From: Minisyncoccota bacterium
GTDB taxonomy: Bacteria > Patescibacteriota > Microgenomatia > PFEM01 > JAFGMK01
Assembly (NCBI GenBank): GCA_016927565.1
Contig: JAFGMK010000008.1
Coordinates: forward strand, 1,115 to 65,114
Length of the DNA stretch: 64,000 nt
Direction of reading: 5' to 3'
Positions 14,797-33,579 of this stretch are shown here, piece after piece. The position numbers were made by a program, and so were the translations under genes. A model generated the notes under the pieces. It had not been told where the DNA came from. It worked only from the letters and a program-made list of their open reading frames with translations, and did no database searches. Each line of letters starts with the position of its first letter. The first letter of the stretch is position 1.

Positions 14797-17643
14797 ATGG
14801 ATTTAACCAAGAGGAAAATAATACTTTTAATCATCTTCTTAACAAGTTTTTTTACCTTTGTCGAATCTGTTTCCGCTCAAGCTTCTTCTGATTGGTATAT
14901 GGCCGGGGCTAATCAGCAAAGGACCAGCTGGGTTTCTGAAGAGGTAAAGGGATTTTTATCACCCCGCTGGTATGTGAATTTTCACCCCTGGATCAACACC
15001 AAAATTCAGCCGATTGGTTCTCACGGTTTGATTTATGTTTCTACTGCAAGAGGGCTTTACGCTCTGAATGCTAACAACGGGAATGTCGCTTGGGTTTATC
15101 CGACCGAGATGGCGTTAGGCCATTCACCGACAATTGTGGGCGATGTCTTGTATGTCGGCGGTTATGATAAGAAGATCCATGCGATCAGAGCGAATCCTAA
15201 TACCAGTTCTTTGCCTGTCGACAGTAAAACCGGCTACCGGATCAATAATCAGATTGTTTGGATTTTTAATGGCGGAGAGGCGGGTTTTGAAACTAATCCC
15301 CTGGTAGTTGACGGGTCAGTTTATGCGGGCAATCGTGATGGCTATTTTTATGCTTTGAATGCTTCAAACGGAAACTTGAAATGGAAGTATAAAACTAATG
15401 GTCCGATTCTCTTTTCTGCCGCCTATAAAGATGGGGTGATTTACCTGGCCTCAAACGATGCTCATGCGTATGCTTTGAATACTAACGGAAGCTTAAAATG
15501 GAAATCTGCCAAGCTGCCAATTGCCGGATTTTATTCATTTTGGCCGGTAGTTTATACTGACCATCAAAGCGGCCGGGATTATGTTATTTTTACTTCTGCC
15601 CACAATTACTTGGCCGACGGTTTCCTGCGAATCAACGAAGTTAAATTTGATTATACCGAATTAGTTGAAGTTTTTCACGCCCACGGTTGTACTCAAGAAA
15701 ATCAGCTTTGCAGTCCCCTGCGTAATGAGCCGTATCCCGGTGGTTGGGTTAGCGGCACGCAAACTATGGACTTGGGTTTCGTCAGTGATTATTTTACTCA
15801 AAAGCCTTACAGGAGAACTTATTTGGTTCTTCGTGTAAGTGACGGGGCTGATTATACTGCAGATGGATACCGGCAACCGCCGTTTCTTTGGGGTGGCAGT
15901 ACTCATAGCGGCAGCAAGTATCCTCCAATGGTGGGATCAGATAATGTCTTATACCAATATGCTAACTATCTGGGTGATCAATATATTGCTGAGGGCCGGA
16001 CGGTAGGCTGGAAATTTGGGACTTCAATTGTCAGTAGAATTGCCCAGTCAAGTAGCGCTATTGACGAACTTTATTCGGTCGCTGGCGGCGGTGATTTGTC
16101 TTATTTTCAACATTGGGAAAGCGAGGCGGGTGCCTTCAATTATGTCAATGGCGGAGAAGAAATCTACTATCAATATGGTGATAATTTTCCCTCAGGGTGC
16201 GGCAGAATGTATCCGGATTGGGTTGCTTATGGCAAGGAGAATGAAGATGGAGCGATTAATGGAGTTTATGGCGGCCCGCAAAGTCCGCCGATTCCTTACA
16301 ATGGGAAGGTTTATTTATTTAATAGCAATTGTCTTTTGGCTCTGGAGAGAGGCGGTTCGGCCAACTCCCCTCTAGCGACGATTCAGCCGGTTGAGAGTGA
16401 GCAGGACGGGCTTGTATTTAATGATGCCGTGCTTGAACAAAAACTCACAAATGAAATTCAAAAAATGATTGATTCCGGTCACTTGAGGCCGGGCTATCAT
16501 GGTTCTACTCAGGGCGACTGGATGATGGCAAGTGAGCATGACTATCTTAATCATTATTTTTCCAACCCCGGGGAAACTATCTATACCCTGCTTTTAGCTT
16601 TGGATGTTTTAAGAAGCAAGCCGATTGCCAATAATCTTAGGAATTACATTCAGCAGGAATATAATGCTTATCCGCCCCATAGTATTGCCCACATCGGCTG
16701 GAATTCCGGAGCGAAAAGAGAAGCCTATGATACGCTTCCCAATGTTCAATCGGCGATGAATAATTTTGGATCTTTGAGTTCTACAGGTAATCATTGGAGG
16801 CTTCCTCCGTTTTCAGTGTATGCTCTTTGGTTATACGCCAGAGAATTCGGCAATGCCAATCAAATTTTAAATCAGGTTCAGAATAAGCTTGATTCACCTC
16901 CGACCAATGACTTTGCAAACTATCCTTTTGTCCACAATGCTTATATTGCCGGCTACATCGGTTATTGCAAGCTGGAAGAACTAGCCAACACGGGCAGCAA
17001 TAATCAGGGAATTCCCCAAGGATGTTCGAAGCAAAGCACTCTCAATAATCTTTTAAGCTCAAGAGTCAGCGGTTTTGATAAGAATAATCATCTTACAGGA
17101 TGGCACGATTATTTTCGCGCCTTCACCGGTTCAAGAAATTTTATGTTCATGGTGCCGGAGCTGGCAGATTATATGAATCAGCATATTCTTGGCAAAGTCA
17201 ATGAAGCTGTTGATGAGTATAATTACTATATTCCCGGCTGGTTTGTTTCTAAATATGACAGTACTTTTGAAGAGGGTATGATTCAGTACCTTTATGATTA
17301 TCCCGCTCTTTTTCAGGCCAAAGCCTACATTCTTAAACAATCTCGAGAGGAATTAAGCAAGTATCTGGATGTCCCGGCATTTGAAAGAGGAGATCTCTTC
17401 TATATTCAAAACCTCATAGCGGCGATTAAAGCAAGTTCATCGTCACCGCCAGTCACTCCTACCCCCAGTTCATGTTCAGCCAATGTCAACAATGACGGTT
17501 CGGTCGGAATGCTTGATTTTCTTCAAGTAATTGGCGTTTGGGGAAACAGGGGAGCCCGACTGGTTGAAGATATCAATAATGACGGCAAAGTGAACATAAT
17601 TGATTTGGGAAGAGTGATAAAAGAGTGGGGGAGCAATTGTTAA
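14797..17643 (+). CDS. secreted PQQ-repeat beta-propeller protein with C-terminal dockerin-like module
   Basis: 948 aa with a signal peptide. PQQ-type repeats ('YALNANNGNVAWVY', 'YALNASNGNLKWKY', 'YALNTNGSLKWKS'). C-terminal pair of Ca-loop motifs 'NVNNDGSVGMLD' and 'DINNDGKVNIID' followed by 'W G' helices (dockerin type I pattern). Paralog of 27977-30931. Confidence 0.7.
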   Translation: MDLTKRKIILLIIFLTSFFTFVESVSAQASSDWYMAGANQQRTSWVSEEVKGFLSPRWYVNFHPWINTKIQPIGSHGLIYVSTARGLYALNANNGNVAWVYPTEMALGHSPTIVGDVLYVGGYDKKIHAIRANPNTSSLPVDSKTGYRINNQIVWIFNGGEAGFETNPLVVDGSVYAGNRDGYFYALNASNGNLKWKYKTNGPILFSAAYKDGVIYLASNDAHAYALNTNGSLKWKSAKLPIAGFYSFWPVVYTDHQSGRDYVIFTSAHNYLADGFLRINEVKFDYTELVEVFHAHGCTQENQLCSPLRNEPYPGGWVSGTQTMDLGFVSDYFTQKPYRRTYLVLRVSDGADYTADGYRQPPFLWGGSTHSGSKYPPMVGSDNVLYQYANYLGDQYIAEGRTVGWKFGTSIVSRIAQSSSAIDELYSVAGGGDLSYFQHWESEAGAFNYVNGGEEIYYQYGDNFPSGCGRMYPDWVAYGKENEDGAINGVYGGPQSPPIPYNGKVYLFNSNCLLALERGGSANSPLATIQPVESEQDGLVFNDAVLEQKLTNEIQKMIDSGHLRPGYHGSTQGDWMMASEHDYLNHYFSNPGETIYTLLLALDVLRSKPIANNLRNYIQQEYNAYPPHSIAHIGWNSGAKREAYDTLPNVQSAMNNFGSLSSTGNHWRLPPFSVYALWLYAREFGNANQILNQVQNKLDSPPTNDFANYPFVHNAYIAGYIGYCKLEELANTGSNNQGIPQGCSKQSTLNNLLSSRVSGFDKNNHLTGWHDYFRAFTGSRNFMFMVPELADYMNQHILGKVNEAVDEYNYYIPGWFVSKYDSTFEEGMIQYLYDYPALFQAKAYILKQSREELSKYLDVPAFERGDLFYIQNLIAAIKASSSSPPVTPTPSSCSANVNNDGSVGMLDFLQVIGVWGNRGARLVEDINNDGKVNIIDLGRVIKEWGSNC

Positions 17644-17654
17644 TTGCTTTATAA

Positions 17655-19226
17655 TTATTTTTTAGGTTTCTTGTAGGTAATCTGGTCTGACCACCAGCCG
17701 GGAATAGCTGCAAGCAGTACTCTATCGGGATCGTTTTTGATTTCTCCGGCATAAGTTAGAGAGTAAAGTCTGACAGCGGATTTAATCTCGACGGCCCCTC
17801 CGCTTTGTTGGATTGATTGACCCAATGTAATGATATTCGGTTTTGCTAGCTGTCCTGCGTCAGTGAGGCTGTAACCGGCAACATGTCCTAATTCATTGGG
17901 CCAAACAGTGTGGTAATGGTCGGCTAAGCCAATCCCAAGGGAAAACGGTTTTATTACCTGAGGCAAACCCCGGCCATGAAGGAGTCGCTGGTACTCTGTT
18001 GTAGCGAGGCTTTCATTTCTGGAGGCAAAATCCGGGTTGGAAAAATCAACTGCAACGAAAAAATCATGATTTATTATTTGGTCGGCCCAAGATCCCAAGA
18101 TTGATGACGGCATTGCTCCGGCAGTGTAGGTGCTCATTCCTAAACGCCGGCATTTTCCGGGATCAAAATCATCCCCAAAAACTGCTTTCATTTCGGCTAT
18201 TTCTTTATCGGCAATAGGTCTGGTGACATCGCTTTGGGTGAAACAGGTTAACCGGCTGATTTCCGGATGTTTTTTGGCCAGAGCAGCAAATCTTGACTTT
18301 CCGCCAACGATTTGGCCTTCGTTATATTCGCGGACAACAAAGCGGGTGTTTCTGAGCAGTTCTGCCTGATCTTCCGGGGGCAAATCCCAGATTCTTTTGA
18401 GGATTAATTCAGTCATATTGCCGACACCGCCGGCCGCATCTTCTACCAGGATAGGGATTTCCGGATCTTTCCTGGCAGAGGATCTGATCTGCTCGATCAT
18501 CATATCAGCCGTTTGCCGCCGGCCGATCTGATCCTGGGATACCCAGGGAGCGTCTGGTTCGAGGGTTTTTCGATCTGCGGTAATTAGCGGGTATAATCCG
18601 GCTAATTTACCATCAACTATTGGTAAAGCAGGCTGGAGCTTGTGCCCGGAATCAGGCGTGTGTTTCTCTAAAATTTTATCCAATCCTTCAGAATCAGCCA
18701 GGCTTTCGGGTACTCTCCCGGTGGCTTGGGCGTGAAAAGCGGGATAGCTTGGACCAAGAATGGCGTAGATATTCATCGGTGGCCAGAGGCGGGCGAACAT
18801 CAAGTGGCTGAGTTCAATTCCGGCCGGGCTGCCGTGAGGAAGACAAAGATTTTTATTCCCAGGTTGCCGGCTGAGATACTGCATTGTGGCGAGTATTATT
18901 CTTTTTTGAACAACAAAAGCAGGATTGTCAACCGATGCTTTTCTCACTGCTTGAAGAAATGGAGTTTGAAGGAGTGCTTGTGCCTGTGTGCCGATTTGTT
19001 CACCCGTAACTTCTTGTTGTCTTAATTCTGGCGGGATTTCGGCCGAAAGTCCTTCAATTCCATCCGGTGCCGGCGGCCGATCGCGTCTTAAAACCTGAAG
19101 TCTGCTTCTGGGGTTGGGAAAAAGGCTTTCCGGCGGAACGCGGTCGACTACTTTTAGTTCATCCGAGCAGATTGTTGGTTCCGCTAATTTGTCTGGGTGT
19201 TGGGAAGCTTCGGTTAGTTCTGCCAT
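17655..19226 (-). CDS. hypothetical protein (possible Rossmann/SAM-methyltransferase-like core)
   Basis: 523-aa GC-rich ORF. 'ILVEDAAGGVGNMTELIL' resembles a glycine-rich nucleotide/SAM-binding loop. No firm family assignment. Confidence 0.45.
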   Translation of the reverse strand: MAELTEASQHPDKLAEPTICSDELKVVDRVPPESLFPNPRSRLQVLRRDRPPAPDGIEGLSAEIPPELRQQEVTGEQIGTQAQALLQTPFLQAVRKASVDNPAFVVQKRIILATMQYLSRQPGNKNLCLPHGSPAGIELSHLMFARLWPPMNIYAILGPSYPAFHAQATGRVPESLADSEGLDKILEKHTPDSGHKLQPALPIVDGKLAGLYPLITADRKTLEPDAPWVSQDQIGRRQTADMMIEQIRSSARKDPEIPILVEDAAGGVGNMTELILKRIWDLPPEDQAELLRNTRFVVREYNEGQIVGGKSRFAALAKKHPEISRLTCFTQSDVTRPIADKEIAEMKAVFGDDFDPGKCRRLGMSTYTAGAMPSSILGSWADQIINHDFFVAVDFSNPDFASRNESLATTEYQRLLHGRGLPQVIKPFSLGIGLADHYHTVWPNELGHVAGYSLTDAGQLAKPNIITLGQSIQQSGGAVEIKSAVRLYSLTYAGEIKNDPDRVLLAAIPGWWSDQITYKKPKK

Positions 19227-19316
19227 TTTAGTCTAGACTAATATAAGCACCTTTTTGGCTGATTGGCAATAGTTTAAGCAACTCGGCTTTTTGACTTTCT
19301 GACTGGCGGTCTTTTT

Positions 19317-20087
19317 TTATTTTTTAGGCAGGAGGGGAATAAGCAAACTGGTCTTTCTTTTGTACTCCTGATATTTTTGATTGGTGGCGTATCTTGAGTT
19401 ATATCTTTTCTCGAGCGGGGGAATGCCGCTGACAAATAAAAGTATAAAGGTAATAAAAATCGGGCTAATGATCGTTAACCAAGCTGGGCCTTGAATGAAG
19501 GTTAAAGAGAAAATGAAAATTCCCCACCAGCAAAGCATTTCTCCAAAATAATTCGGATGGCGGGAATATTTCCATAGCCCGTTCCCGATCCATTTTCCTT
19601 GATTTTCCGGTTTATTTTTGAAAACAAACTTCTGTTGGTCAGCCGCTGTTTCAATTGTCAGGCCGATCGCCCAAATGACTATTCCCGAAACCATCAGGAA
19701 AGAAAGGGCCCGGTCTTCAGGCTGGTTCAGAAGGTGAATGCCGGGCAACATAATTGTCCAAACAGCCAAAGCCTGGAAAAGCCAAAATTTTAAAAAATCC
19801 AGCGGCTTTTCTCTGATCTTGTCAAAGCGGCTGTCTTTCTTAATCTTTAAGATCCGGGAAAAAAGATAGCCTATTAACCTGATTCCCCAGAGAACGATCA
19901 TCAAGGCCAAAATTAATTGGTAAAGGTAAAAGGTCTGATTGCGGAAAAGCAAAAAAAAGGTTAGAGAAATAAAAGTCAAGCCATAAGTGAAATCGGTCAG
20001 TTTGTCGGTTTTAAAAAGACTGGCAAAAGTAAAGAATCCCAAATTAATGGCCAAACTGATCAGGAAAGTAAAAAAGTAGATATTCAT
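19317..20087 (-). CDS. DUF1295/ICMT-like membrane methyltransferase-family protein
   Basis: 256 aa, multi-TM. 'YSRHPNYFGEMLCWWG' motif of the steroid-reductase/ICMT/DUF1295 superfamily. Confidence 0.55.
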   Translation of the reverse strand: MNIYFFTFLISLAINLGFFTFASLFKTDKLTDFTYGLTFISLTFFLLFRNQTFYLYQLILALMIVLWGIRLIGYLFSRILKIKKDSRFDKIREKPLDFLKFWLFQALAVWTIMLPGIHLLNQPEDRALSFLMVSGIVIWAIGLTIETAADQQKFVFKNKPENQGKWIGNGLWKYSRHPNYFGEMLCWWGIFIFSLTFIQGPAWLTIISPIFITFILLFVSGIPPLEKRYNSRYATNQKYQEYKRKTSLLIPLLPKK

Positions 20088-20219
20088 AAAATCAACTCCC
20101 CTAAAAGTATTATAACTTTTTAGAAAGATATTAAAAAGATAAATAATCAGCTGGGTTCATTTTTTGCCAAAAAACTAAAAGACCAATTCCCATAAGATAT
20201 CTTTATTTATTGTCTCTGA

Positions 20220-20237
20220 CTGTAAGCTGGCTTACAG
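20220..20237. promoter_or_regulatory. perfect palindrome CTGTAAGC-TG-GCTTACAG (CRP/FNR-like 5-N6-5 geometry TGTAA-N6-TTACA), 38 nt upstream of the ABC ATPase start
   Basis: Read directly from the sequence. Geometry equals the CRP family site TGTGA-N6-TCACA. A Crp/Fnr regulator gene lies at the operon end. Confidence 0.4.
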
Positions 20238-20275
20238 CTTTGCTGCCGGGTAATGATTAAGATATTTTTTAAAGG

Positions 20276-20965
20276 ATGAAAATGAAACCAAAGAAAATAA
20301 TTCAACTTAATCAAATAACTAGAGAATATCAACTTGACGGGGTGGTTGTTCCGGCTTTAAAAGATATTAATCTCGAAATAAACGAAGGAGATTTTTTAGC
20401 TATTGTTGGTCCGTCAGGATCAGGCAAGTCAACTCTGCTTCACATTTTAGGACTGCTCGATCGTCACAGCCGGGGCGATTTTTTGTTTTTAAATAAAAAC
20501 ATTAGTTTATTAACGGATGATCAATTAGCTGATCTTCGCAATCGGGCAATTGGCTTTGTTTTTCAACAATTTAATCTTCTTCCCCGGACCGGGGCTTTAG
20601 AAAACGTTTTGCTGCCAACTCTTTATGGAGATAATAATCCTGAAGAAGCTAGACAAAGAGCCGTTAGACTGCTTGAAGATTTGGGTTTAGGAAAAAAATT
20701 AAATAACTATTCCAATCAGCTTTCCGGTGGTCAGCAGCAACGGGTGGCTGTGGCCCGGGCTTTAATTAACCGGCCGAAGATAATTTTTGCGGATGAACCC
20801 ACTGGGAATCTAGACACTCAGTCCGGAAAAGAAGTTTTTTCTATTTTAAAAAACCTTAATTTGGAAGGGAAGACAATTATCCTGGTTACTCATGATTCTG
20901 ACTTGGCCCGGCAAACCAGCCGCCAGGTTTATCTTCAGGACGGGAAGATTACAAAAATCAACTAA
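20276..20965 (+). CDS. ABC transporter ATP-binding protein (MacB/LolD-type)
   Basis: 229 aa. Walker A 'GPSGSGKST', signature 'LSGGQQQRVAVARAL', Walker B 'IIFADEPTGNLD'. Confidence 0.8.
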   Translation: MKMKPKKIIQLNQITREYQLDGVVVPALKDINLEINEGDFLAIVGPSGSGKSTLLHILGLLDRHSRGDFLFLNKNISLLTDDQLADLRNRAIGFVFQQFNLLPRTGALENVLLPTLYGDNNPEEARQRAVRLLEDLGLGKKLNNYSNQLSGGQQQRVAVARALINRPKIIFADEPTGNLDTQSGKEVFSILKNLNLEGKTIILVTHDSDLARQTSRQVYLQDGKITKIN

Positions 20966-21005
20966 AAGAATAAAGGAGACTGTTGAATAAAAAGAGATTT
21001 TAACT

Positions 21006-22220
21006 ATGAAAATTAAATGGTCCCGGATTTATCAAAGTGCTTTTTTTTCCATCTCTAGGAATAAAACCCGCTCATTTTTAACCATTCTGGGAGTGGTCAT
21101 TGGTGTTTTTGCCGTCGTTGTTCTAACTGCTATTGGCGGAGGGATTCGGAAGTTTATTGCCGATCAGTTTGACAGTTTGGGGGCCAACACTATTTATGTC
21201 TCCCCCGGGGAAGTGTTGGGAGAAGATGGCGGTTTCAGCCGGCAGGCGCAAGCTGTTTCAAACAGCCAGTTGAAAGAAAGCGATATTTCTTTAATTTTAC
21301 GAATCGGAGTACCAATAAAAGCCGCCATTCCTCTTTTTCAGGGTCAGGGAAAGGTGGCCGCTAATGGCGAGCAAAAAACAGTGAGCATTATTGGCACTTT
21401 GCCGGACTATTCTTCGGTCAGAAACACTGATACTGCTAGTGGCCGTTTTTTTACCAAAACTGATCAGTCAGCCGCTAAAAAGGTAGTTGTTTTGGGGCCA
21501 AAAGTGGCTGAGGAAATTTTTCCTGACCAGGAATCAGTCGGTCAAAAGGTAACTTTAAACGGGATTCGTTTTACGGTTATTGGGGTGGTAGAGAAAAAGG
21601 GTGGCGGTGGTTTTGGCGGACCCGACATTGACAGCCAGGTTTACCTGCCGGCTTCAACTGCTCAAAATCTTTTGGAACTGGAAAATCTAAGCACAATTCT
21701 CGTTCAGGTCGATGCCCAAGAGAATATTCCCCAAGCCAAGGAAAAACTGAGAAACGCTCTGCTAAAAAGGTTGGATGAAGATGATTTTTCTGTTTTTGAT
21801 CAAGGCGAGCTGCTTTCGACCATTGACCAGATTTTTCAAACAGTAACAATTGCTCTGCTGGGAATCGCGGCCATCTCTCTTTTGGTAGGCGGAATTGGAA
21901 TTATGAATGTGATGCTGGCAACTGTCACCGAAAGAACCAGGGAAATTGGCTTGCGGAAGGCTGTCGGTGCCAAAGAAAAAATTATCCTGATTCAGTTCTT
22001 AGTCGAGGCGTCTGCCTTAAGTTTGTTTGGGGGTGTTTTGGGAATTGGCCTAGGGTTGGGTCTGGCTTTAATTGTAGGAAATTTTTTCCCAATTGCCGTT
22101 AATCCGGCTTCAGTAATAATCGCTTTTGTGGTCTCAGTCCTGACTGGAGTAATTTTTGGAGTTTGGCCGGCCCGTCGGGCGGCTCGGCTTCCGCCGGTTG
22201 AAGCCCTAAGATATCAATAG
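21006..22220 (+). CDS. ABC transporter permease (FtsX/MacB-like)
   Basis: 404 aa. N-terminal TM, large periplasmic domain, and C-terminal 3-TM FtsX-like core containing 'ERTREIGLRKAVGA'. Confidence 0.75.
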   Translation: MKIKWSRIYQSAFFSISRNKTRSFLTILGVVIGVFAVVVLTAIGGGIRKFIADQFDSLGANTIYVSPGEVLGEDGGFSRQAQAVSNSQLKESDISLILRIGVPIKAAIPLFQGQGKVAANGEQKTVSIIGTLPDYSSVRNTDTASGRFFTKTDQSAAKKVVVLGPKVAEEIFPDQESVGQKVTLNGIRFTVIGVVEKKGGGGFGGPDIDSQVYLPASTAQNLLELENLSTILVQVDAQENIPQAKEKLRNALLKRLDEDDFSVFDQGELLSTIDQIFQTVTIALLGIAAISLLVGGIGIMNVMLATVTERTREIGLRKAVGAKEKIILIQFLVEASALSLFGGVLGIGLGLGLALIVGNFFPIAVNPASVIIAFVVSVLTGVIFGVWPARRAARLPPVEALRYQ

Positions 22221-22282
22221 ATCCTCCGAGAGATCTAAATTAAACTGAAAATTGGCTATCCTCTTTCATTTGGAATTGATCT

Positions 22283-22963
22283 TCATAAAATCGTCGGCAG
22301 AGATCTTGTTTGGTCAAAAATCAATGATTCTTCTTTAAGCTTTTCAATGTTCAGAACGGTGACTGTTTTTTGCTTATAGTCAATAATTTTTTTATCGGCT
22401 AATCTCTTCATCAACGAGCTCGTTGTCTCCCGGGTTAAGCCGTTCAGATGAGCCAAGTCCTGATGGCTAAGCGGAAGACAAATCTTGAAACTCCCCGAAC
22501 CAACCTCCTGGCCAAAACGCTTGGCTAAAATTATCAGGTGGGAGGCTAATTTATTTTTTGCTTTGCCGAAAACTAAATATTCGATCCGGTTAAGCAAGCC
22601 ATTGATGCCGGTTAACATTCGGCGGTTAAGGTCAAAGAAAATACCCGGCTCCTTTTTTAGGAAAAGAAGCACCTCTTCTTTTGGGGCGCGGTAGGTAACT
22701 GTTGGGGTAAAGCTCTCAAAAAAGAAATGATTAGTTTCATCGCTCAAAGCCCAAATCATAGAAAAAAAAGAGCCCGGCTTAAAGAGATTGAGAGTCAATT
22801 CTTGGCCTTGAGCTGAAGAGGTAAAAAGCCGGACATAACCCTTTTTCAAAAAGTAAATCCCGGCCGGGGGTTGATCTGGTTGAATGATTGTTTGATACTT
22901 TAAAAATGTTTTTTTTGGGAAACGGCCGAAAAAGCGGTTAAGTTTGGCAGGAATTGAGTCCAT
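22283..22963 (-). CDS. Crp/Fnr-family transcriptional regulator
   Basis: 226 aa. N-terminal cNMP-binding-like beta-roll region. C-terminal HTH 'QDLAHLNGLTRETTSSLMKRL'. Confidence 0.65.
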   Translation of the reverse strand: MDSIPAKLNRFFGRFPKKTFLKYQTIIQPDQPPAGIYFLKKGYVRLFTSSAQGQELTLNLFKPGSFFSMIWALSDETNHFFFESFTPTVTYRAPKEEVLLFLKKEPGIFFDLNRRMLTGINGLLNRIEYLVFGKAKNKLASHLIILAKRFGQEVGSGSFKICLPLSHQDLAHLNGLTRETTSSLMKRLADKKIIDYKQKTVTVLNIEKLKEESLIFDQTRSLPTIL

Positions 22964-23081
22964 AAACTAAGTATACCATGATCATCAGCTAATAAGGATT
23001 AATGTATAAGTCACCCACTTTCCGGAAGTTTGGCTTCAATGAAAGCCATTGGTTACAAGTACCCCAAAGAGCTGTGTGGTC

Positions 23082-24619: not shown

Positions 24620-24645
24620 TTCAATCTGTTAATACTTCCCGGGAG

Positions 24646-25161: not shown

Positions 25162-25168
25162 AAATAAA

Positions 25169-25208
25169 AAAACCAAGGCCCCCTAAAGTCTGGGCCCTGG
25201 TTTTTATT
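25169..25208. terminator. bidirectional rho-independent terminator
   Basis: 11-bp stem AACCAAGGCCC / GGGCCCTGGTT (1 mismatch), loop CCTAAAGTCT. Flanked by an A-run upstream and T-run downstream. Sits between convergent genes. Confidence 0.55.
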
Positions 25209-25222
25209 AATCTCCTGAAGGG

Positions 25223-25828: not shown

Positions 25829-26018
25829 TTTTTTTCACCTCCTTTCATTTTTTTAATCTAAAAAAATATTACTTTTTAAAAGTTAGGGAAGCTGTAAGAA
25901 TGATTACAATAATAGTTAATAGGAGGCGGTTCTGTTCGATATGCCTTGAGATAATCCCTCCAAGTGTGAGATAATAAACGACTATTCCATTTTTACTGAT
26001 TCATCAGCTTAAAAAAAT

Positions 26019-26954
26019 ATGAACAAACTAATTGTTGTCGCTCTTGGAGGCAATGCCATTAAGAGTGCGAAGCAAAAAGGCACCAATCAAGAACAATTCT
26101 TCAATGTCAGTAAAACCACCGAACACTTGGCAAAGTTGGTAAAGGAAGGATACCGGTTAGTTATCACTCATGGCAATGGTCCTCAGGTGGGAAATTTACT
26201 TATCCAGCATGATGCCGCCAAAGATAAAGTACCGGCGTTGCCGATGGATGTTTGCGGTGCTCAGAGTCAGGGACAAATTGGCTATATGATTTCCCAAACC
26301 TTGGGCAACCATCTGAAAAAATTGGCCGTAAATAATCCGGTTGCTGCTGTTGTCACCCAGGTTGAAGTCGATAAGAATGATCCGGCTTTTGGCAATCCCA
26401 CCAAGCCGGTAGGTCCTTTTTATGACAGAAAAAACGGCCAAAAGCTTAAAACCAGGGGTTTTACCGTTATTGAGGATGCCGGCCGGGGCTACCGTCGGGT
26501 TGTTCCCTCTCCGCAACCCAAGCGCATTGTTGAAATAGATGCTATTAAATGTTTAGTAAAATCAGGAGCGGTTGTAATTGCCTCCGGAGGCGGAGGGGTG
26601 CCGGTAATTAAGAGAGAAGGGGAATATCAGGGCACAGAAGCGGTTATTGATAAAGATTTGGCCGGTGAGTTGCTGGCCGAAGAATTGAAGGCCTGTCTCT
26701 ACATTATTCTGACTGATGTAGAAAAAGTATCTTTAAATTTCAATACTGAAAATCAGCAGGACTTAAGTGAACTTACTTTGGCCGAGGCAGAAAAATACCA
26801 ACAGGAAGGACACTTTGCGCCCGGCTCTATGGCTCCGAAAGTTAGAGCAGCGACCAGATTTGTTTCAAATACGAATAATCCGGTCCTGATCACTCATCCG
26901 TTTAAAATTTCAGATGCGCTCAATGGCAAAACAGGCACCAGAGTTATTAAATAA
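26019..26954 (+). CDS. arcC: carbamate kinase
   Basis: 311 aa. 'LIVVALGGNAI' and 'ITHGNGPQVGNLL' amino-acid-kinase family motifs. Length and layout match carbamate kinase. Confidence 0.8.
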   Translation: MNKLIVVALGGNAIKSAKQKGTNQEQFFNVSKTTEHLAKLVKEGYRLVITHGNGPQVGNLLIQHDAAKDKVPALPMDVCGAQSQGQIGYMISQTLGNHLKKLAVNNPVAAVVTQVEVDKNDPAFGNPTKPVGPFYDRKNGQKLKTRGFTVIEDAGRGYRRVVPSPQPKRIVEIDAIKCLVKSGAVVIASGGGGVPVIKREGEYQGTEAVIDKDLAGELLAEELKACLYIILTDVEKVSLNFNTENQQDLSELTLAEAEKYQQEGHFAPGSMAPKVRAATRFVSNTNNPVLITHPFKISDALNGKTGTRVIK

Positions 26955-26980
26955 AAAAAATAACAAAAAAAGGAGGATTT

Positions 26981-27907
26981 ATGAGTCTTAAAGGCAATCA
27001 TCTAACCAATGTTTTCGATTTAAATCGTGAACAGATAGAGCTTATTTTCGAAACTGCCAAAGATTTAAAACGAAGACAGAAAATCGGCCAGCCTCATCAG
27101 TTGTTAAAAGGAAAATCTTTGGGCATGATTTTTCAGAAACCTTCCACCAGAACCCGGGTGAGTTTTGAGGTAGGTATGACCCAGCTTGGCGGCCATGCTC
27201 TTTACTTGGGACCCAATGATCTGCAGTTAAACCGCGGAGAAACTATTGCTGATACAGCCAAAGTCCTTTCCCGTTATGTTGATGGGATAATGGCCCGGGT
27301 TTTTTCGCATAATGATATTGTCAGTCTGGCAGAAAATTCGACGGTACCGGTTATAAATGGCCTGTCCGACAGGTTTCATCCCTGTCAGGCGCTGACTGAC
27401 CTTTTTACTATTTTGGAGAAATATCAATCATTTGATGGTTTGAAGGTCGGCTTTGTCGGGGATGGCGATAATAATGTGACCTACTCGCTCATGTATTTGT
27501 GTGCCAGGCTGGGAATTGACATCAGTGTTGGTTGCCCCCCGAAATACAATGTTAAGGACGAGGTCTTGGCTGTAGCTAAAAAGGAAGCTAACAAAACAGG
27601 AGCAAAAATTACCGTTACCCCGGATCCTGAAAAAGCTGTTGCCCTGGCTAATGTTATTTACACCGATGTTTGGGTTAGTATGGGGCGCGAAGATAAAGAA
27701 GAGCGGCTCAAAGCTCTCAAGCCCTATCAGGTAAATAACTTCTTGATTAAGAGGGCGGCTCGGCACGCTATCATTATGCATTGCCTGCCGGCTCACAGAG
27801 GAGAGGAGTTAACAAACGAAGTTATGGATGGACCTCAGTCGGTTGTTTTTGACCAGGCCGAAAATCGGCTTCATATCCAAAAAGCTATCATGGCCTTGAT
27901 GATGTAA
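26981..27907 (+). CDS. argF: ornithine carbamoyltransferase
   Basis: 308 aa. 'STRTRVSFE' carbamoyl-phosphate binding motif and 'HCLPAHRGEE' ornithine-binding motif. Confidence 0.8.
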   Translation: MSLKGNHLTNVFDLNREQIELIFETAKDLKRRQKIGQPHQLLKGKSLGMIFQKPSTRTRVSFEVGMTQLGGHALYLGPNDLQLNRGETIADTAKVLSRYVDGIMARVFSHNDIVSLAENSTVPVINGLSDRFHPCQALTDLFTILEKYQSFDGLKVGFVGDGDNNVTYSLMYLCARLGIDISVGCPPKYNVKDEVLAVAKKEANKTGAKITVTPDPEKAVALANVIYTDVWVSMGREDKEERLKALKPYQVNNFLIKRAARHAIIMHCLPAHRGEELTNEVMDGPQSVVFDQAENRLHIQKAIMALMM

Positions 27908-27976
27908 GAATTCAAAACAGAGGGCGGTCCAAAAAAGAAGGAACAAGCTGGCTGGGGCGGATTGTTTTTACTGTCT

Positions 27977-30931
27977 TTACTGACAATTCTTTCCCCATTC
28001 CCTTATCACTTCTCCCAGGTCAATCCCGTTAACTTTGCGATCATTGTTAATGTCTTCGGCCAACCCCGACCCTGTTTTTCCCCAGGCGCCGATTACTTGG
28101 AGAAAATCAGCCAATCCTACCGACCCGTCGTTATTGACGTTGGCCAAACAAAGAGCGGGAGTGGGAGTAACAACCGGTCCTGAAGAATTTGCTTCAATCG
28201 TTGCCACTAGGTTTTGGATATAAAAAAGGTCTCCTTTTTCGAACCCGGGGACATCCAGATATTTAACCAGCTCCTCGTAAGATTCTTTAAGAATCAAAGC
28301 TTTAGCTTGGAAAACAGCGGGAACATCAAGCAGGTGCTGCAGACCGGATTCGTTGTTGCCGTCATCAAATTTGGACACAAACCAGCCCGGAGTAACATAG
28401 TTATATTCATCAACCGCTTCCTGGACTTTTGACAATGCATGTTGGTTCAGATAATCTCCCAGTTCGGGGACAAGATACAAGAAATTTCTGGCAGTATTCA
28501 TAACCAAAAGATAAACAGAATCCTGAGGGCCGCCACCGCCAAACTCATTGTCTTTTGAAAAATTTCCGATTCTTGCCTGCAATAAGCTGTTTAAGGTTGA
28601 TTGTCTGGAGCAGCTCTGGGGAATTCCCTGATTATTACTTCCGGTATTAACCAGTTCTTCAAGCTTGCAATAGCCAATATATCCGGCAATGTAAGCGTTG
28701 TGCATATAAGGGTAATCGGTGAGAAGATTATTGGAAGGCGGGGATTCAAGTTTGTTTTTAATCTGGTTAAAGACGGTGCTTGCTCCGCCAAATTCCTCTG
28801 CATATTTCCATAATGCATAAAAGTTATATTGAGGAAAGTCCCAAGACCAATCCGACACGTTTATAGCAGGTTCATAGTAATAACTGGAAGTTTTGGATCC
28901 GTAGCTGTTCATTCCCAGTTGAATCTCCGGCAAAGTCTCAAAAGCCTCTCTTTTGGAGCCGGTTGCCCAGCCGATTTGAGCAATCTGGTAGGGAGGGTAG
29001 TCTTCATATTCCTGTTGGATGTATGAGCGGGCCTGCTGTTGCAGTGAGGGAGATAAATGAGGCAGAGTCCTGATTAGAGTTTCTATGGTTTCGGCTGGAT
29101 TATGGAAATAGTGGATAAGGTTACGCGGACCCATACTGGGGTCAGGTATCCCGCCGCTGTGATATCCGGGCCGCAAATGACCGGCTTCAATCATTTTTTG
29201 CACCTCCGTCTCTAATTTTTCTTTTAGCCGGAAAACGGCAATTGGCGGTTGGTTTTGCCGGACATTGACTGGCCGGGCATTCGGCAGGGGATTGTGAGCG
29301 TTCCCGTTCGGCCCAAAGGCCAATAAGCCGTTATAAACATGGTAAAAAACTTTTCCTTTATAAGGAATTGGCGGGTTTTTAGGTTCACCGTAGATTCTGT
29401 TTTGACTTCTGTGTGTTTCGCTGGATGAATATCCCGGAGCAAGAGAATACAGATTATAAGTATAATAATTCCATACTCTTTCTCCGGAAGTAGTCGATAT
29501 ATCGATTGCTCCAGCTTCGCTTTCCCAATGCTGGAAGTAAATCAAATTTCCTCCGGCAGAGAAGGTGTGGAATTCATCATTGGGCATTCCGCTTTTCAGA
29601 TTGCTGATATATTTTGTCCCAAACTTCCAACCGACCACATGTCCCCGTCCGATCCATGGGTCAGAGATATAGTTGTTAAACTGATATAAAACGCCGTCGC
29701 TGCCGATCACCGGCGGATATCTATTGCCTCCATGGCTCCACCCCCCCCAGAGAAAAGGGGCATAATCGGGCAATCCGTCTGAGTCTGCGTCAAAAGTAAC
29801 TTCATTCCCGTTGGCTCTGTTTATGACAAAATAAGTTCTTTTCCACGGCTTATGATCGTTTCTTTCCAGGCCGGCGGGGTCGGAATCGGCTTCCTGGGCA
29901 GTTGGCTGCTCGTAATGATCGACTATTCTTTGGACATCGACAGTTTGTGTCCCGCTAACCCAATCGCCCGGTTGGGTTCCGTTTCCTTGAGGGTAACTGA
30001 CTAATTGCCCGTTGGGGATATTATTTGCGGTAAAAACTTCTCTAAGTTCAGTACCGTCAAATTTACTTCTAAGATCACTATATTGCAGCGTTAAGTCGGC
30101 AAAGTCTATCAGATAATTGTGGCTCCCGCCAAAAATGACATAATTTTGGTAAATTACCGGCCAGAAAGAATGAAATCCTGCTCCGGGTAATTTTGGTGAT
30201 TTCCAGACTCTGGCTCCGGTAGTTGCATTTAAAGCATAAGCATGAGCATCATTAGCGGCAAAGTAGATGACATTATCTGCGTAAGCCGCAGAAAAGAGAA
30301 TCGGTCCGCCGGTTTGGTGCGACCAGAGCAAACTGCCGGTTGTGCTGTTTAAGGCATACATTTTGCCGTCGCGGTTTCCGACATAGACGATATTATTAAC
30401 CACCAGGGGATTAGTTTCGAAACCTGCTTCAGCTTGATCAAAGATCCAAATGATCTTGTTGTTAATGCGATAGCCGGTTTCGCTGTCTACTGGCAATGAA
30501 GAAAGGCTGGGTTTGGCTTCAATGGCGTGAACCTTTTTGTCATATCCTCCCACATACAGCCTGCCCTCAACAACGGTGGGTGATTGGCCGAGAGGCAGTT
30601 CGGTGGGATAAACCCAGGCGATATCGCCATTACTGGCATTCAGAGCGTAAAGCCCTCTTGCTGTAGACAGATAAACCAAATCATTAGCGGCGATTACCTG
30701 TATCTTCCCATTAACATAGGGATTAATTGGCCGATACCAAACAGGGGATAATGTGCCTCTCACCTCTTCGGCTGTCCAGGATATTCTTTGCGGATTGGCG
30801 CCGGACATGGCCCAATTCTGTTCCCACCAGGAAGAACTTTGAGCTGCGGCTTGATTGGAAAAAGCGACAAACAGAACGGCTGTTATTAAACAAATTCTAA
30901 TTTTCATAGGGCCTAACTCCCGCAACCCCAA
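27977..30931 (-). CDS. secreted PQQ-repeat beta-propeller protein with C-terminal dockerin-like module (paralog of 14797-17643)
   Basis: 984 aa with a signal peptide. 'YALNASNGDIAWVYPTE', 'YALNSTTGSLLWSHQT', 'YALNATTGARVWKS'. C-terminal 'NVNNDGSVGLAD...DINNDRKVNGID'. Confidence 0.7.
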   Translation of the reverse strand: MGLRELGPMKIRICLITAVLFVAFSNQAAAQSSSWWEQNWAMSGANPQRISWTAEEVRGTLSPVWYRPINPYVNGKIQVIAANDLVYLSTARGLYALNASNGDIAWVYPTELPLGQSPTVVEGRLYVGGYDKKVHAIEAKPSLSSLPVDSETGYRINNKIIWIFDQAEAGFETNPLVVNNIVYVGNRDGKMYALNSTTGSLLWSHQTGGPILFSAAYADNVIYFAANDAHAYALNATTGARVWKSPKLPGAGFHSFWPVIYQNYVIFGGSHNYLIDFADLTLQYSDLRSKFDGTELREVFTANNIPNGQLVSYPQGNGTQPGDWVSGTQTVDVQRIVDHYEQPTAQEADSDPAGLERNDHKPWKRTYFVINRANGNEVTFDADSDGLPDYAPFLWGGWSHGGNRYPPVIGSDGVLYQFNNYISDPWIGRGHVVGWKFGTKYISNLKSGMPNDEFHTFSAGGNLIYFQHWESEAGAIDISTTSGERVWNYYTYNLYSLAPGYSSSETHRSQNRIYGEPKNPPIPYKGKVFYHVYNGLLAFGPNGNAHNPLPNARPVNVRQNQPPIAVFRLKEKLETEVQKMIEAGHLRPGYHSGGIPDPSMGPRNLIHYFHNPAETIETLIRTLPHLSPSLQQQARSYIQQEYEDYPPYQIAQIGWATGSKREAFETLPEIQLGMNSYGSKTSSYYYEPAINVSDWSWDFPQYNFYALWKYAEEFGGASTVFNQIKNKLESPPSNNLLTDYPYMHNAYIAGYIGYCKLEELVNTGSNNQGIPQSCSRQSTLNSLLQARIGNFSKDNEFGGGGPQDSVYLLVMNTARNFLYLVPELGDYLNQHALSKVQEAVDEYNYVTPGWFVSKFDDGNNESGLQHLLDVPAVFQAKALILKESYEELVKYLDVPGFEKGDLFYIQNLVATIEANSSGPVVTPTPALCLANVNNDGSVGLADFLQVIGAWGKTGSGLAEDINNDRKVNGIDLGEVIREWGKNCQ

Positions 30932-33579
30932 TCGCCAATCGCAATTATCAAATCAAAACCGTTTACTTTTCCATCATCGTTTAAATTTTCTTTTAAGTCA
31001 ACCCCTTCTCGGCCCCAAGAAGAAATAATCTGATAAAAATCATCGGCATTAACCTGGCCATTATTATCTACGTCACCGCGGCAGACAGGATTTGTCGGAA
31101 ATATTGCCTTGGGAATCAGTTTAATTGCCAGATCAGCCTCAAGATTATTAATAGCGAGGCTTATTTGGCCTGAGTTGGAAATTGATTTTGTTTCCTGATT
31201 GGTTTTTTGGCCGGTTCGGGTATTCCACCATTCCAAGTCGTATTCACCACTAAGAAGCCCGCTAATGGTTAAAGTGCTGCTGACTGGTGAAGACTGAGGA
31301 TTGGTCCAGGTATGATTGCGATTATCTATCCATAACAGCATCCGGCCGTCACGGTTGCTTTTAACTCCCCAGGCCCTGATGTTTGAGTTGCTGGTATTGA
31401 TCTGTTGACCGTTTTCTAAATCAGTGCCTATTTCAGTAAAACTGCCATTATTGACCGGCTCGCCTTTCATAAAAGTTTCGTAAGCCTGGAACATTTTGAA
31501 AGTATTAGCTTGGGTGTTGGGGTATTGGCAGCCGGCTTCGGCATCCCAGCTGCTACAATCCTTAAACATTCTGGGATACCATTCTCCGTCACAGCTGGAT
31601 CCCAGAATACCGATGTGAGCCCAAAGTTTTTTATGATACCAGAGACCTTGAGGTTCTTTCTGGACTTCGGGGTGCTGCGGGTCAGTTCCGGAAGCGGCTA
31701 CTCCGCCTTCCCCTTTTATAATTGGTTTTAAATAGCCTGAATTTCTATAGCCCCGGAAAAGATTGAAACATTCTCTTACATAGGCAGCTGAATCTTGCCA
31801 AATATTGCTGATGGCTCCGGATGAGCCGTTTTGCTGGCTGTATAAATGCTGATCTGAGTAATCAATCAGGTATTTTTTTTCCGGATTGTTGAAAAAATCC
31901 CCAATCCAATAGCCCCAAAAAGAGTTGGTCATCATTACATGACGGGGTGATAAATCATGAACAAGACCGGCCAAGTGCCAGGCTGAGTCAAAAGAAAGGA
32001 TCCTGCCGGATCCCCGAGGGTCTTCATACCAGCCGCTTTCATTGCATAATTCCAGAGAATGGATTGAGGGGGAGTATGACCAGCGGCCGATAAAGTAGCG
32101 GGCATAAGCGTCTTCGTACCAGCGGGCTGCTTGGCCGTCGGCAGAGTAAAAATTCACCGGGCATTCTCCCCAGTCACAGCGGTAGGAATCACCGAAACTT
32201 CCGTCGGGCTGAAAATGGTTCAGAACCCGATCGTTTTTTTCGAAAACAGTCAATTTATGGTAAACCCCGTATCTTTCGGAAAGTTTCAGAGCTTCATCCA
32301 GTCTGGCGGCACTGGGTTGATCAACATATAAATGAGTGTCCGGGTCGCCTCTGGTTAACAGGTTCGGTCCCCAATCGCCGCGGCCGGTTTCGTCGCGTTG
32401 AAGGACCATTGAGTGGAGCCTGATTGAACCCTCGGCAGAGGCGTTAAAAGGTGAAGGTGCTTCTGCGGAAACATAAAGACCGCGGACTCCGGCTGTCAGA
32501 CTGCTGTTTGAATTGTTTATCGTTAATGAGTAGTCATGCCAGCCGCTTTGCTGATAGGCACACTGGAAACCATTGGCTTTATGGATTGTGTTGGTTTCCG
32601 AGCAGATGTCCAAGTAAGAATTGCCTAATTGGAGCCTCATTACCTTCTGCCCTTCAACCCGGCCTCGGAAGCTAAAGCGGTATTGGCTCCGTTCTGCCGG
32701 AATCTGCTGGGTCGAATAATAATAAGGCCGGAAGCTGACTTTTTTGCCGCTGGCAGTGTCGACGATATCAAATCGTTCCCGGCCTTCGCTAAAACCCCAG
32801 GCAATTCTGATCCAATCGCCGTAAGGAGCGATCATAAAATTGGCGCCTTCACCGGTGGGAAACCAGCGGATAAAACGGGCTCCGTTGTTGCCTAATTTGG
32901 CGATGTTTTGCCGGAGATCACTGAGGTCATTGAAAGGGTTGCCCTCTTCCATATTCAGAAGGGGACTGACAAACGGTTCGCCATTGGAAAATTCAAAAAA
33001 ACGGGAATCAGCCTGGGAGACTTTAAGATAGCCCTTGCAAAGATGTTCCTGGCTGGTGCAGGCTATCGTTTCAAAACTGCCGATTGCTGATTGAGCGCTG
33101 CCGGCAGCCTCAGTTACTTTAACTTGGTATTTCCAGCTGCCTTCTTCTTCCGGGGAAAAGCGGCAACGCCAATCAGCCGGCCCTTCCGGGAGTAAACTGA
33201 TATTGCTGCCACTTCCTACTTCCCGAACCGGTTGATAATAAAAACAGGGCGTTTTTTTGGCGTTTTGCCAGTTAACCTCTCCGGGTGGCAAGAATAAGGC
33301 ATCAACACTGACTCCGATGCCGGGTTCTATTCCGGCTGCCGGGTGAGGATCATAAGGGAAATAAGGATTAGTAAAATCAGTGTTTTCAAGATTGAAGCTG
33401 ATTTCGAACTTATTAAATTTTTCTATCTTGCCGGGAGTCTCTGCTTTAAGGTTGGTAAGTGATGGTGCTGCCAAGACGGAAGCCGGAAAGAAAAAAGAAG
33501 CAATGGAGAAGCAGGAAAATAAGATAATGAAGATTTTTGATCTCGCTTGATTATAATTGTAATTTACTGATAACTTCAT
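30913..33579 (-). CDS. secreted large protein with putative glycoside-hydrolase-like region and C-terminal dockerin-like module
   Basis: 888 aa with a signal peptide. C-terminal 'DVDNNGQVNADD...NLNDDGKVNGFD'. 19-nt overlap with the downstream paralog gene. Confidence 0.55.
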   Translation of the reverse strand: MKLSVNYNYNQARSKIFIILFSCFSIASFFFPASVLAAPSLTNLKAETPGKIEKFNKFEISFNLENTDFTNPYFPYDPHPAAGIEPGIGVSVDALFLPPGEVNWQNAKKTPCFYYQPVREVGSGSNISLLPEGPADWRCRFSPEEEGSWKYQVKVTEAAGSAQSAIGSFETIACTSQEHLCKGYLKVSQADSRFFEFSNGEPFVSPLLNMEEGNPFNDLSDLRQNIAKLGNNGARFIRWFPTGEGANFMIAPYGDWIRIAWGFSEGRERFDIVDTASGKKVSFRPYYYSTQQIPAERSQYRFSFRGRVEGQKVMRLQLGNSYLDICSETNTIHKANGFQCAYQQSGWHDYSLTINNSNSSLTAGVRGLYVSAEAPSPFNASAEGSIRLHSMVLQRDETGRGDWGPNLLTRGDPDTHLYVDQPSAARLDEALKLSERYGVYHKLTVFEKNDRVLNHFQPDGSFGDSYRCDWGECPVNFYSADGQAARWYEDAYARYFIGRWSYSPSIHSLELCNESGWYEDPRGSGRILSFDSAWHLAGLVHDLSPRHVMMTNSFWGYWIGDFFNNPEKKYLIDYSDQHLYSQQNGSSGAISNIWQDSAAYVRECFNLFRGYRNSGYLKPIIKGEGGVAASGTDPQHPEVQKEPQGLWYHKKLWAHIGILGSSCDGEWYPRMFKDCSSWDAEAGCQYPNTQANTFKMFQAYETFMKGEPVNNGSFTEIGTDLENGQQINTSNSNIRAWGVKSNRDGRMLLWIDNRNHTWTNPQSSPVSSTLTISGLLSGEYDLEWWNTRTGQKTNQETKSISNSGQISLAINNLEADLAIKLIPKAIFPTNPVCRGDVDNNGQVNADDFYQIISSWGREGVDLKENLNDDGKVNGFDLIIAIGDWGCGS

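Follow-up and report, generated by a model that had tools for sequence, protein, structure and literature searches.

Within a 64,000-nucleotide (nt) stretch of a Microgenomates genome (contig JAFGMK010000008.1, 106,473 bp long and annotated at source as 'Candidatus Pacebacteria bacterium'), which is referred to throughout as the window, three genes encode large secreted proteins, designated A, B and C (Table 1), that each end in a compact dockerin-type module. We consider it somewhat probable that A, B and C are secreted glycan-processing enzymes whose module serves as a Ca2+-dependent tether to a partner. Specifically, the three proteins would be exported by Sec and would act on extracellular or cell-surface polysaccharide, with C cleaving glycan and with A and B working alongside the C family. 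Outside the cell, the module would fold on binding Ca2+ and would hold A, B and C non-covalently on one common cell-surface partner, which may be a cohesin or something else and would be encoded elsewhere. Tethering of this kind, which we infer along with the partner itself, would keep the enzymes with a very small cell and prevent them from diffusing away.

Dockerin-type modules on three secreted proteins

The three open reading frames (ORFs) singled out by a first-pass annotation of this DNA are present as it described them, each with a typical Sec signal peptide. Read from the translations, these peptides are MDLTKRKIILLIIFLTSFFTFVESVSA before Q in A and MKIRICLITAVLFVAFSNQAAA before Q in B, and the one in C ends in FSIASFFFPASVLA before A. 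Protein A is identical to a deposited protein (P0013) annotated 'PQQ-binding-like beta-propeller repeat protein' (Ca. Pacebacteria), C is identical to one annotated 'DUF5060 domain-containing protein' (P0121), and B, when read from ATG 30907, is identical to the deposited 976-residue protein P0001.

The tails of A, B and C share a common layout, in which a short Pro/Thr linker is followed by a Cys, two residues, a 12-residue loop, a helix ending in W-G, an 8-residue linker, a second loop, a second W-G helix and a closing Cys located 1–3 residues past the last W-G and 0–2 residues from the protein end. The module spans ~52–56 residues, with a repeat period of 29 residues and helices of ~9 residues, and reaches within 0–3 residues of the C terminus, rather than ending 10–20 residues short of it as had been stated. 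Its loops follow the consensus N/D-V-N/D-N-D/N-G-x-V-x-x-x-D (more loosely D/N-x-D/N-x-D/N-G-x-V-x-x-x-D). A six-frame regular-expression (regex) search for this loop returned five matches in the window, all of them in A, B and C, as compared to an average of 0.02 in residue-shuffled ORFs; the sixth loop, loop 2 of B, contains Arg instead of Gly at position 6. The two-segment arrangement characteristic of dockerins (Asp or Asn at positions 1, 3 and 5 and Asp at position 12, followed by an alpha-helix) can be read directly in all three tails, and helices are assigned by DSSP after each loop in the AlphaFold2 models, at low pLDDT.

These features are mirrored in profile scores. Against Pfam Dockerin_1 (PF00404; gathering threshold 22.9 bits), the isolated tails of 64–65 residues scored 36.5 (A), 31.7 (B) and 23.9 bits (C), so that all three pass, and the corresponding values for the full-length proteins were 22.7, 24.2 and 16.3 bits. 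For the isolated tails, Dockerin_1 ranked above every EF-hand model, none of which exceeded 19 bits or reached its own cutoff. The first-pass annotation had proposed dockerin-type motifs at these C termini and had named failure against the dockerin profile as the outcome that would count against them; no such failure occurred. Sequence matches to the Protein Data Bank (PDB) in the tail regions are to solved dockerins only, at weak E values of 0.09–0.6 (the CelL dockerin 6kg9 for B, and 2y3n_B, 2mte and 1daq for C), and beyond the propeller and DUF5060 regions there was one other match, marginal and unrelated (E 0.56). Taken together, these results support the assignment of the three tails, at the profile level, as genuine compact dockerin-type modules, and their loops would be expected to bind Ca2+.

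With respect to conservation, the tails of A and B are 73% identical, as compared to 53% for the whole proteins. A homologue 76% identical to C (P0122) retains the same tail and the same Cys pair, and in the B-like and C-like proteins of another locus (L009) the C-terminal tails likewise have Cys at both positions. In a dockerin, the N- and C-terminal ends adjoin each other, and because the bracketing Cys pair is also conserved, it probably forms a disulfide clasp that joins the ends of the module. In its role, such a clasp would be analogous to the non-covalent 'intramolecular clasp' described for a Ruminococcus dockerin (PMC3821032). Elsewhere in the window, positions 46587–47771 (+) encode a 394-residue protein that combines a signal peptide with a DsbA/thioredoxin-like 'YGCPHC' motif and a polytopic membrane domain, and that has only weak Pfam matches; by its sequence, this protein may be an extracytoplasmic disulfide-forming enzyme of relevance to the module Cys pairs.

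The modules resemble type I cellulosomal dockerins (PF00404; Clostridium thermocellum Cel48S/CelS, PDB 1daq/2mte) in their duplicated 12-residue Ca2+ loop and helix, in their C-terminal position after a Pro/Thr linker, and in their presence on secreted carbohydrate-active enzymes. They differ in being shorter, with the ~9-residue W-G helices, 29-residue period and bracketing Cys pair described above. Moreover, recognition positions of the Ser-Thr type are not conserved, position 9 of loop 1 in A and B is Gly, and the host is a Microgenomates bacterium without evidence of cellulolysis and with no cohesin in view.

Table 1. Positions of genes A, B and C, their domains, modules and predicted catalytic residues in the window
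Feature	Coordinates	Strand	Residues	Description	Basis
Gene A	14797..17643	+	948 residues	Signal peptide (1-27), BamB/PQQ-like beta-propeller, all-helical domain, Pro/Thr linker, C-terminal dockerin-type module	
Gene B	27977..30907	-	976 residues from ATG 30907	Signal peptide (1-22), 8-bladed propeller, helical domain, linker, dockerin-type module	
B propeller	29303-30790	-	about 40-535		
B helical domain	28184-29236	-	about 558-908		
Ribosome-binding site of B	30917..30921	-		GGGAG, 9 nt upstream of ATG 30907, within last codons of C	Direct sequence reading
Gene C	30913..33579	-	888 residues	Signal peptide (1-37), DUF5060-type beta-sandwich, GH5-like (beta/alpha)8 domain, two further beta-sandwiches, dockerin-type module	
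C domains			~40-172; ~185-705; ~282-396; ~714-823	DUF5060-type beta-sandwich; (beta/alpha)8 catalytic domain; inserted beta-sandwich; C-terminal beta-sandwich	
C Asn513-Glu514	32038..32043	-	513-514	Predicted clan GH-A acid/base motif	HMMER alignment to 9gpc and conservation
C Glu624	31708..31710	-	624	Predicted catalytic nucleophile (G-E-G-G motif)	G623, E624 and G626 invariant in alignment
Module of A	17473..17640	+	893-948	Cys893; loop 1 (896-907) NVNNDGSVGMLD; helix FLQVIGVWG; linker; loop 2 (925-936) DINNDGKVNIID; helix LGRVIKEWG; C-terminal Cys948	Regex at 17482, 17569
Module of B	27980..28150	-	920-976	Cys920; NVNNDGSVGLAD-FLQVIGAWG; linker; DINNDRKVNGID-LGEVIREWG; Cys975	
Module of C	30916..31083	-	833-888	Cys833; DVDNNGQVNADD-FYQIISSWG; linker; NLNDDGKVNGFD-LIIAIGDWG; Cys886	Regex at 31074, 30987

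The tagged proteins and their families

Protein C had been credited with a different, catalytic-looking domain. Its AlphaFold2 model (pLDDT 91) found as its top Foldseek match the GH5 (glycoside hydrolase family 5) beta-mannanase ManDH5 of Dictyoglomus thermophilum (9gpa; E 1.4e-32, TMt 0.81, 15% identity), followed by BVU_0362, the GH140 protein BT_1012 and GH5 entries. In the HMMER alignment, E514 of C falls on residue 303 of 9gpc, the structure of the ManDH5 catalytic mutant E303Q, and N513, E514, E624, H578, Y580 and R238 are invariant in 111 homologues. On the basis of this structural match, the E514/E303 alignment and the invariant residues, C as modelled is a retaining clan GH-A, GH5-like glycoside hydrolase with extra beta-sandwich domains. 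The hallmarks of this clan are a barrel, an Asn-Glu pair on strand 4 and a Glu on strand 7; all are present in the model, with the strand placement of E624 being predicted, and by analogy with clan topology E624 would be the nucleophile. The order of a DUF5060 beta-sandwich and a (beta/alpha)8 barrel is shared with ManDH5, whereas the inserted and C-terminal beta-sandwiches and the dockerin tail are particular to C. At the level of sequence, a phmmer comparison of C with 9gpc (E 1.2e-7) covers the DUF5060 and early-barrel region only, and the catalytic-domain stretch alone is not significant. The DUF5060 model itself (PF16586) scores C at 20.5 bits, below its threshold of 27.2; many homologues of C carry a precomputed PF16586 assignment, and structural and PDB matches support a DUF5060 fold in C.

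Proteins A and B are paralogs, as had been claimed, and align over their full length. The AlphaFold2 model of B (pLDDT 89, pTM 0.89) contains a propeller for which Foldseek returned the 8-bladed propeller Cake8 (TMt 0.81), BamB, tetrathionate hydrolase and PQQ (pyrroloquinoline quinone) alcohol dehydrogenases, and A matches Pfam PQQ_2 at 55 bits. The helical domain of B (~350 residues) has no match in Pfam or among PDB sequences.

In terms of gene arrangement, a mechanical ORF listing places the start of B at the first TTG (27977–30931, -). The start is almost certainly ATG 30907 rather than this upstream TTG, because a GGGAG ribosome-binding site is appropriately located and because the deposited P0001 has the same start. 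The stop codon of C and the ATG of B are then separated by a gap of 5 nt, and the 19-nt overlap of B and C reported by the first-pass annotation is a product of the TTG choice. Given this spacing and the position of the B ribosome-binding site inside the last C codons, the two genes look co-transcribed as one operon, with C first.

The association of the B and C families extends beyond the window. A word-indexed search with B returned >1100 matches, an undefined share of which are propeller-only and the best 120 of which cover ~90% of B; the same search with C returned 166 matches. Neighbouring genes were counted at 80 GTDB loci of B genes, which are mostly from Chloroflexota. Adjacent B and C genes were observed at L003 and at five of the 80 GTDB loci (L009, L010, L012, L068 and L082), and a C–B fusion is found in P0132. 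In a member of candidate division WWE3 (UBA1401, DBQF01000005.1; L043, 756–14738), a single ORF of 4661 residues contains fused B–C–B units, and the domains downstream of these are three CHB_HEX_C_1/Fn3_assoc, seven Calx-beta and a CarboxypepD_reg-like domain, with no dockerin. The operon described here, the adjacencies elsewhere and the two fusions link the families, which would be expected to work together.

The commonest neighbours of B genes at the 80 GTDB loci are GT2, GT4, Wzt, an ABC-2 permease, Wzy_C, a hexapeptide acetyltransferase and a BNR-like protein. Within Chloroflexota, genes of the B family and, in some cases, of the C family belong to clusters for surface-polysaccharide biosynthesis and export of the Wzx/Wzy or ABC-transporter type. 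This placement suggests that the B and C families process the polymer of the cluster, and the substrate of A, B and C is likewise expected to be a polysaccharide. Hydrolases and lyases such as PslG, PelA, BcsZ and AlgL lie inside exopolysaccharide biosynthesis clusters, and the Chloroflexota B (sometimes C) genes may be analogous to these in position; there is, in contrast, no sequence relationship, and the A, B and C genes of the window lie outside any such cluster. The window also encodes, at 11030–12295 (-), a 421-residue protein with an N-terminal membrane anchor and ~8 beta-propeller-like repeats ('IYYKKLDNNGN-L---I-V'), with weak matches to BNR_4, SBBP and PDIAV-lipoprotein models; a BNR_2-like neighbour is present at 22 of the 80 B loci.

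A second context is seen in Roizmanbacteria, Woesebacteria and doubtfully labelled loci, where B paralogs are arrayed with a GH140-like apiosidase, beta-helix/CBM35 proteins, an FG-GAP protein and C-like proteins, many of them with dockerin-like modules. At one such locus (L082, 1–18676; Ca. Roizmanbacteria, CAWJTN010000001.1 812161–830836), C-like, GH140-like apiosidase, three B-like, beta-helix+CBM35+apiosidase and C-like genes are found together, and dockerin-like modules that are almost the same are encoded by four genes in a row, in three of them directly behind the signal peptide and in the other at an internal site. The 1.23-Mb contig on which this locus lies holds at least two further B loci (L065 and L069), and at least four full-length B paralogs are present in the loci examined from this Roizmanbacteria genome.

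Among the homologues listed for each family, a conserved core is combined with swappable C-terminal ends, which may be nothing, DUF11-like, SLH, PKD, or cohesin plus dockerin. High-GC (guanine plus cytosine) homologues of the Chloroflexota type, a class assigned by tails and contexts since most come from unlabelled metagenome contigs, have a DUF11-like domain and/or a 'YLPL..K/R' end where proteins of the Microgenomates type hold the dockerin module. It is mainly this exchange that leads us to read the module as the means of surface retention in the present lineage. The Chloroflexota-type end itself (a ~136-residue DUF11-like domain and/or 'YLP[LV][IVL]x[KR]' 2–5 residues from the C terminus, in P0003–P0012, P0123–P0128, P0136, P0018, P0154 and P0166) looks, from its sequence, like an undescribed C-terminal sorting or attachment tag. 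Five Chloroflexota homologues (P0018, P0154, P0166, P0171 and P0177) have tails annotated as cohesin (precomputed PF00963), and the first three of these carry dockerin and cohesin on one enzyme, a combination suggestive of self-assembling enzyme chains.

Proposed tethering and the alternatives

If the modules act as tethers, a partner should exist, and the most familiar candidate is a cohesin. No Pfam Cohesin match was obtained among window ORFs of at least 120 residues, nor among 19 large ORFs beside B genes in Microgenomates-like loci, which are mostly unlabelled or mislabelled, and ~6 kb of additional flank recovered through Logan contigs contained no relevant genes. A hidden Markov model (HMM) built from eight highly divergent Chloroflexota cohesin tails matched at L006 only, which is a weak negative as the profile itself finds no solved cohesin at E<=0.01. 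The products of 17655–19226 and 34611–35858, which the first-pass annotation had described as not obviously cohesins, were rejected as candidates in agreement with that description: both lack a signal peptide and any Pfam, NCBIfam or PDB match, and reach an hhalign probability of 0.2% against a cohesin profile. The latter was also weighed as a binding protein for the ABC transporter encoded downstream and dropped, having no signal peptide and no match to a substrate-binding protein. With regard to the attachment complex that had been suggested for this lineage, a shared attachment receives indirect support from the elevated identity of the A and B tails, the near-identical modules of Microgenomates relatives and the cohesin/dockerin tails of Chloroflexota, whereas the cohesin scaffold was not found in the window, its flank or the relatives' loci.

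These searches bear directly on the possibility of a classical cellulosome-like system, in which the genome would encode, outside the window, a scaffoldin or anchor with cohesins onto which the tails dock to build a multi-enzyme complex. Passage of the Dockerin_1 threshold by the isolated tails is compatible with this arrangement, as is the presence of cohesin (PF00963) and dockerin on Chloroflexota homologues of both enzyme families, so that such assembly is used with these enzymes in other organisms; near-identical modules on several enzymes of one genome are, furthermore, a hallmark of enzyme-borne dockerins. We nonetheless judge it unlikely, in view of the absence of Pfam Cohesin from the window ORFs and the 19 large ORFs of Microgenomates-like loci, the single locus matched by the Chloroflexota-type cohesin HMM (whose reach is short) and the difference in recognition positions between the A/B and C tails. 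In addition, published surveys, as summarised in PMC9012536, record organisms with dockerins but without scaffoldins.

A dockerin without a visible cohesin is already a known situation and is unsurprising by itself. Many bacteria and archaea that do not degrade cellulose have cohesin and dockerin modules, frequently with no scaffoldin (PMC9012536, summarising Peer et al. 2009), and a dockerin-domain envelope protein, SEML1_0315, is essential in a cultivated Saccharibacterium (PMC10633639). Such non-cellulosomal modules resemble those of A, B and C in residing on assorted extracytoplasmic proteins of non-cellulolytic organisms, Patescibacteria included, that have no recognisable scaffoldin. The A, B and C modules differ from them in tagging the functionally linked B and C families and, in related genomes, whole arrays resembling carbohydrate-active enzymes. 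The idea that the tail is a C-terminal secretion or sorting signal was rejected, since the Roizmanbacteria module is N-terminal or internal.

A further alternative dispenses with a protein partner, and treats the modules as Ca2+-dependent EF-hand-like appendages that stabilise the enzymes or bind cell-wall or S-layer glycan or the substrate polysaccharide. Its appeal lies in the abundance of the module and its promiscuity in position and copy number, in the lack of a cohesin in view, and in the departures from canonical type I dockerins in helix length, period and recognition residues. In an exhaustive search of 1.84 billion cluster representatives, a profile of the three tails matched 8960 proteins at E<=1e-3 and 134 at E<=1e-10, often in multiple copies (up to 17 in one protein) and at N-terminal, internal or C-terminal positions; of ten such matches, three carried a name, and the one informative name was that of a Phycisphaerales beta-helix protein. 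This alternative appears doubtful to us, as the tail is better conserved between the paralogs than the catalytic body, near-identical copies are found on unrelated enzymes of one genome, and Dockerin_1 outscores all EF-hand profiles. The first two of these observations lead us to favour a common, specific binding partner over a generic stabiliser.

Several observations weigh against a shared dockerin-type tether for glycan-processing enzymes. The module type is extremely common, at any position or copy number, so that by itself its occurrence reveals little about function. In the full-length scan, only B reaches the Dockerin_1 cutoff. AlphaFold2 confidence in the tails is low (pLDDT about 45–60 in the B and C models), because few of the aligned homologues carry such tails. 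At position 9, loop 1 of A and of B has Gly in place of the customary Asp or Asn. Loop positions 10 and 11 recognise cohesin in canonical dockerins; these positions differ between the A/B tails and the tail of C, which speaks against a single, identical binding site. Searches of the window, of the ~6 kb of extra flank and of the relatives' loci yielded neither a cohesin nor any other candidate partner. The linkage of B and C is seen at only six of the 80 GTDB loci (five adjacencies and the L043 fusion), the A/B family is biochemically uncharacterised, with a helical domain that matches nothing in Pfam or among PDB sequences, and the A, B and C genes of the window are flanked by housekeeping genes, outside any polysaccharide cluster.

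A more far-reaching version of the tether can be envisaged, in which Pacebacteria, Roizmanbacteria, Woesebacteria and relatives share a lineage-wide Microgenomates display system. Here, Cys-clasped dockerin modules would hold a glycan-degrading battery on a partner that is not recognisable as a cohesin, the B and C core would have been captured horizontally from Chloroflexota polysaccharide clusters, and the targets would be envelope glycans of host or neighbour cells rather than the organism's own polymer. We regard this extended scheme as speculative and quite improbable.

Two remaining alternatives concern the identity of A and B and the integrity of the contig. The first, which casts A and B as PQQ-dependent dehydrogenases or BamB-like assembly factors and the locus as serving redox chemistry or envelope biogenesis and not glycans, is very improbable: Pfam PQQ_2 and PQQ matches, the NCBI/JGI names 'PQQ-binding-like' and 'BamB', and structural likeness to BamB and PQQ alcohol dehydrogenases speak for it, yet TIGR03075 (PQQ_enz_alc_DH) scores A and B at 52.5 and 57.5 bits against a cutoff of 480, over ~100 residues only, and the BamB model TIGR03300 at 53 and 64 bits against 285. 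Similarity to BamB, tetrathionate hydrolase and PQQ alcohol dehydrogenases is thus one of repeat type and 8-bladed fold, with profile matches limited to the repeat region (~70–275) and structural matches to the propeller of ~950-residue proteins. BamB is, moreover, an outer-membrane lipoprotein of ~390 residues, whereas A and B have AxA-type signal peptides without a lipobox and an extra conserved helical domain, and their conserved partner and neighbours are glycoside hydrolases and glycan-biosynthesis genes. By family score, A and B are not quinoproteins; the PQQ-type propeller originally assigned to them holds as a repeat type and not as an indication of cofactor.

The second, by which the contig would be a fragment of Chloroflexota DNA, mis-binned or chimeric, and the dockerins of candidate phyla an artefact, draws on the fact that, self-matches aside, the closest homologues of all three proteins are located on high-GC contigs with polysaccharide clusters. 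In a neighbour-joining (NJ) tree (834 columns, Kimura distances, 100 bootstraps), A and B fall with such homologues, from contigs of 0.59–0.61 GC, in a clade with 96–100% support, and not with the separate Roizmanbacteria/Woesebacteria clade (100%). We find this explanation scarcely credible. The GC contents of A, B and C (0.435, 0.459 and 0.468) lie in the upper part of the local range, within ~1.5 standard deviations (sd) of the window gene mean (0.410, sd 0.040), as compared to 0.55–0.61 at Chloroflexota-type loci; the genes are thus not GC-rich, contrary to the earlier description of this DNA. They also alternate with housekeeping genes of 40% GC on a single contig, part of which was assembled independently in Logan from run SRR13394437, and their tails are of the Microgenomates-relative type, not the DUF11/YLPL type.

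Old horizontal transfer fits the data better. Protein B is 57–63% identical to homologues on high-GC contigs and 53% identical to A, and the tree places A outside B and the relatives of B with 63% support. A duplication giving rise to A and B is suggested by their unique shared insertion ('CKLEEL-NTGSNNQGIPQ-CS'), although the placement of A in the tree points otherwise. These sequence comparisons fit an old transfer into the lineage followed by duplication, with faster evolution of A or partial gene conversion. In the same tree, the B-family genes of three records (L055, L061 and L068) group with Roizmanbacteria and Woesebacteria, and that of L009 groups with P0059, apart from these, yet the L009 proteins have the same dockerin-like tails; the titles of all four records read 'Pseudomonadales' or 'Gammaproteobacteria', GC is ~0.40 in L009 and L061, and the taxon labels look doubtful.

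Genomic surroundings and biological meaning

Between genes A and B lie ~10.3 kb of unremarkable genes, which encode DUF1295, a MacB-type ABC pair, Crp, TspO, DUF2177, fasciclin, carbamate kinase and ornithine carbamoyltransferase. The first-pass annotation had given about this spacing and described the two paralogs as divergent; the distance is correct, and with A (+) to the left of B (-) the genes are convergent. The carbamate kinase-like and ornithine carbamoyltransferase genes, at 26019–27907 (+), adjoin B and are components of the arginine deiminase pathway, which suggests that ATP is obtained from arginine or citrulline in this small genome. At one end of the window, a low-GC (0.29–0.36) operon at 185–4514 (-), continued in L088, encodes a carbamoyltransferase, an S-adenosylmethionine methyltransferase, an uncharacterised protein and an APH-like kinase, with a sulfotransferase just beyond the window; it may be a horizontally acquired island for tailoring glycans or small molecules. 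An Rfam scan of the window gave no matches, and promoter and terminator scans gave counts at background level.

Dockerin-bearing enzymes outside cellulosomes are already known. What is added here is the linkage of the B and C families, their placement in polysaccharide clusters and the finding that dockerin tags recur across Microgenomates. Two large uncharacterised families (>1100 matches with B and 166 with C) are thereby tied to each other and to Chloroflexota polysaccharide clusters, which provides a starting hypothesis for their function. Bacteria of the candidate phyla, whose genomes are tiny, are believed to live in attachment to other cells, and in the window and in its relatives several 3-kb genes are spent on dockerin-tagged, glycan-directed secreted proteins. 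If the tags do tether, they would represent a simple and testable mechanism of attachment or display, and would place enzymes at the interface between symbiont and host.

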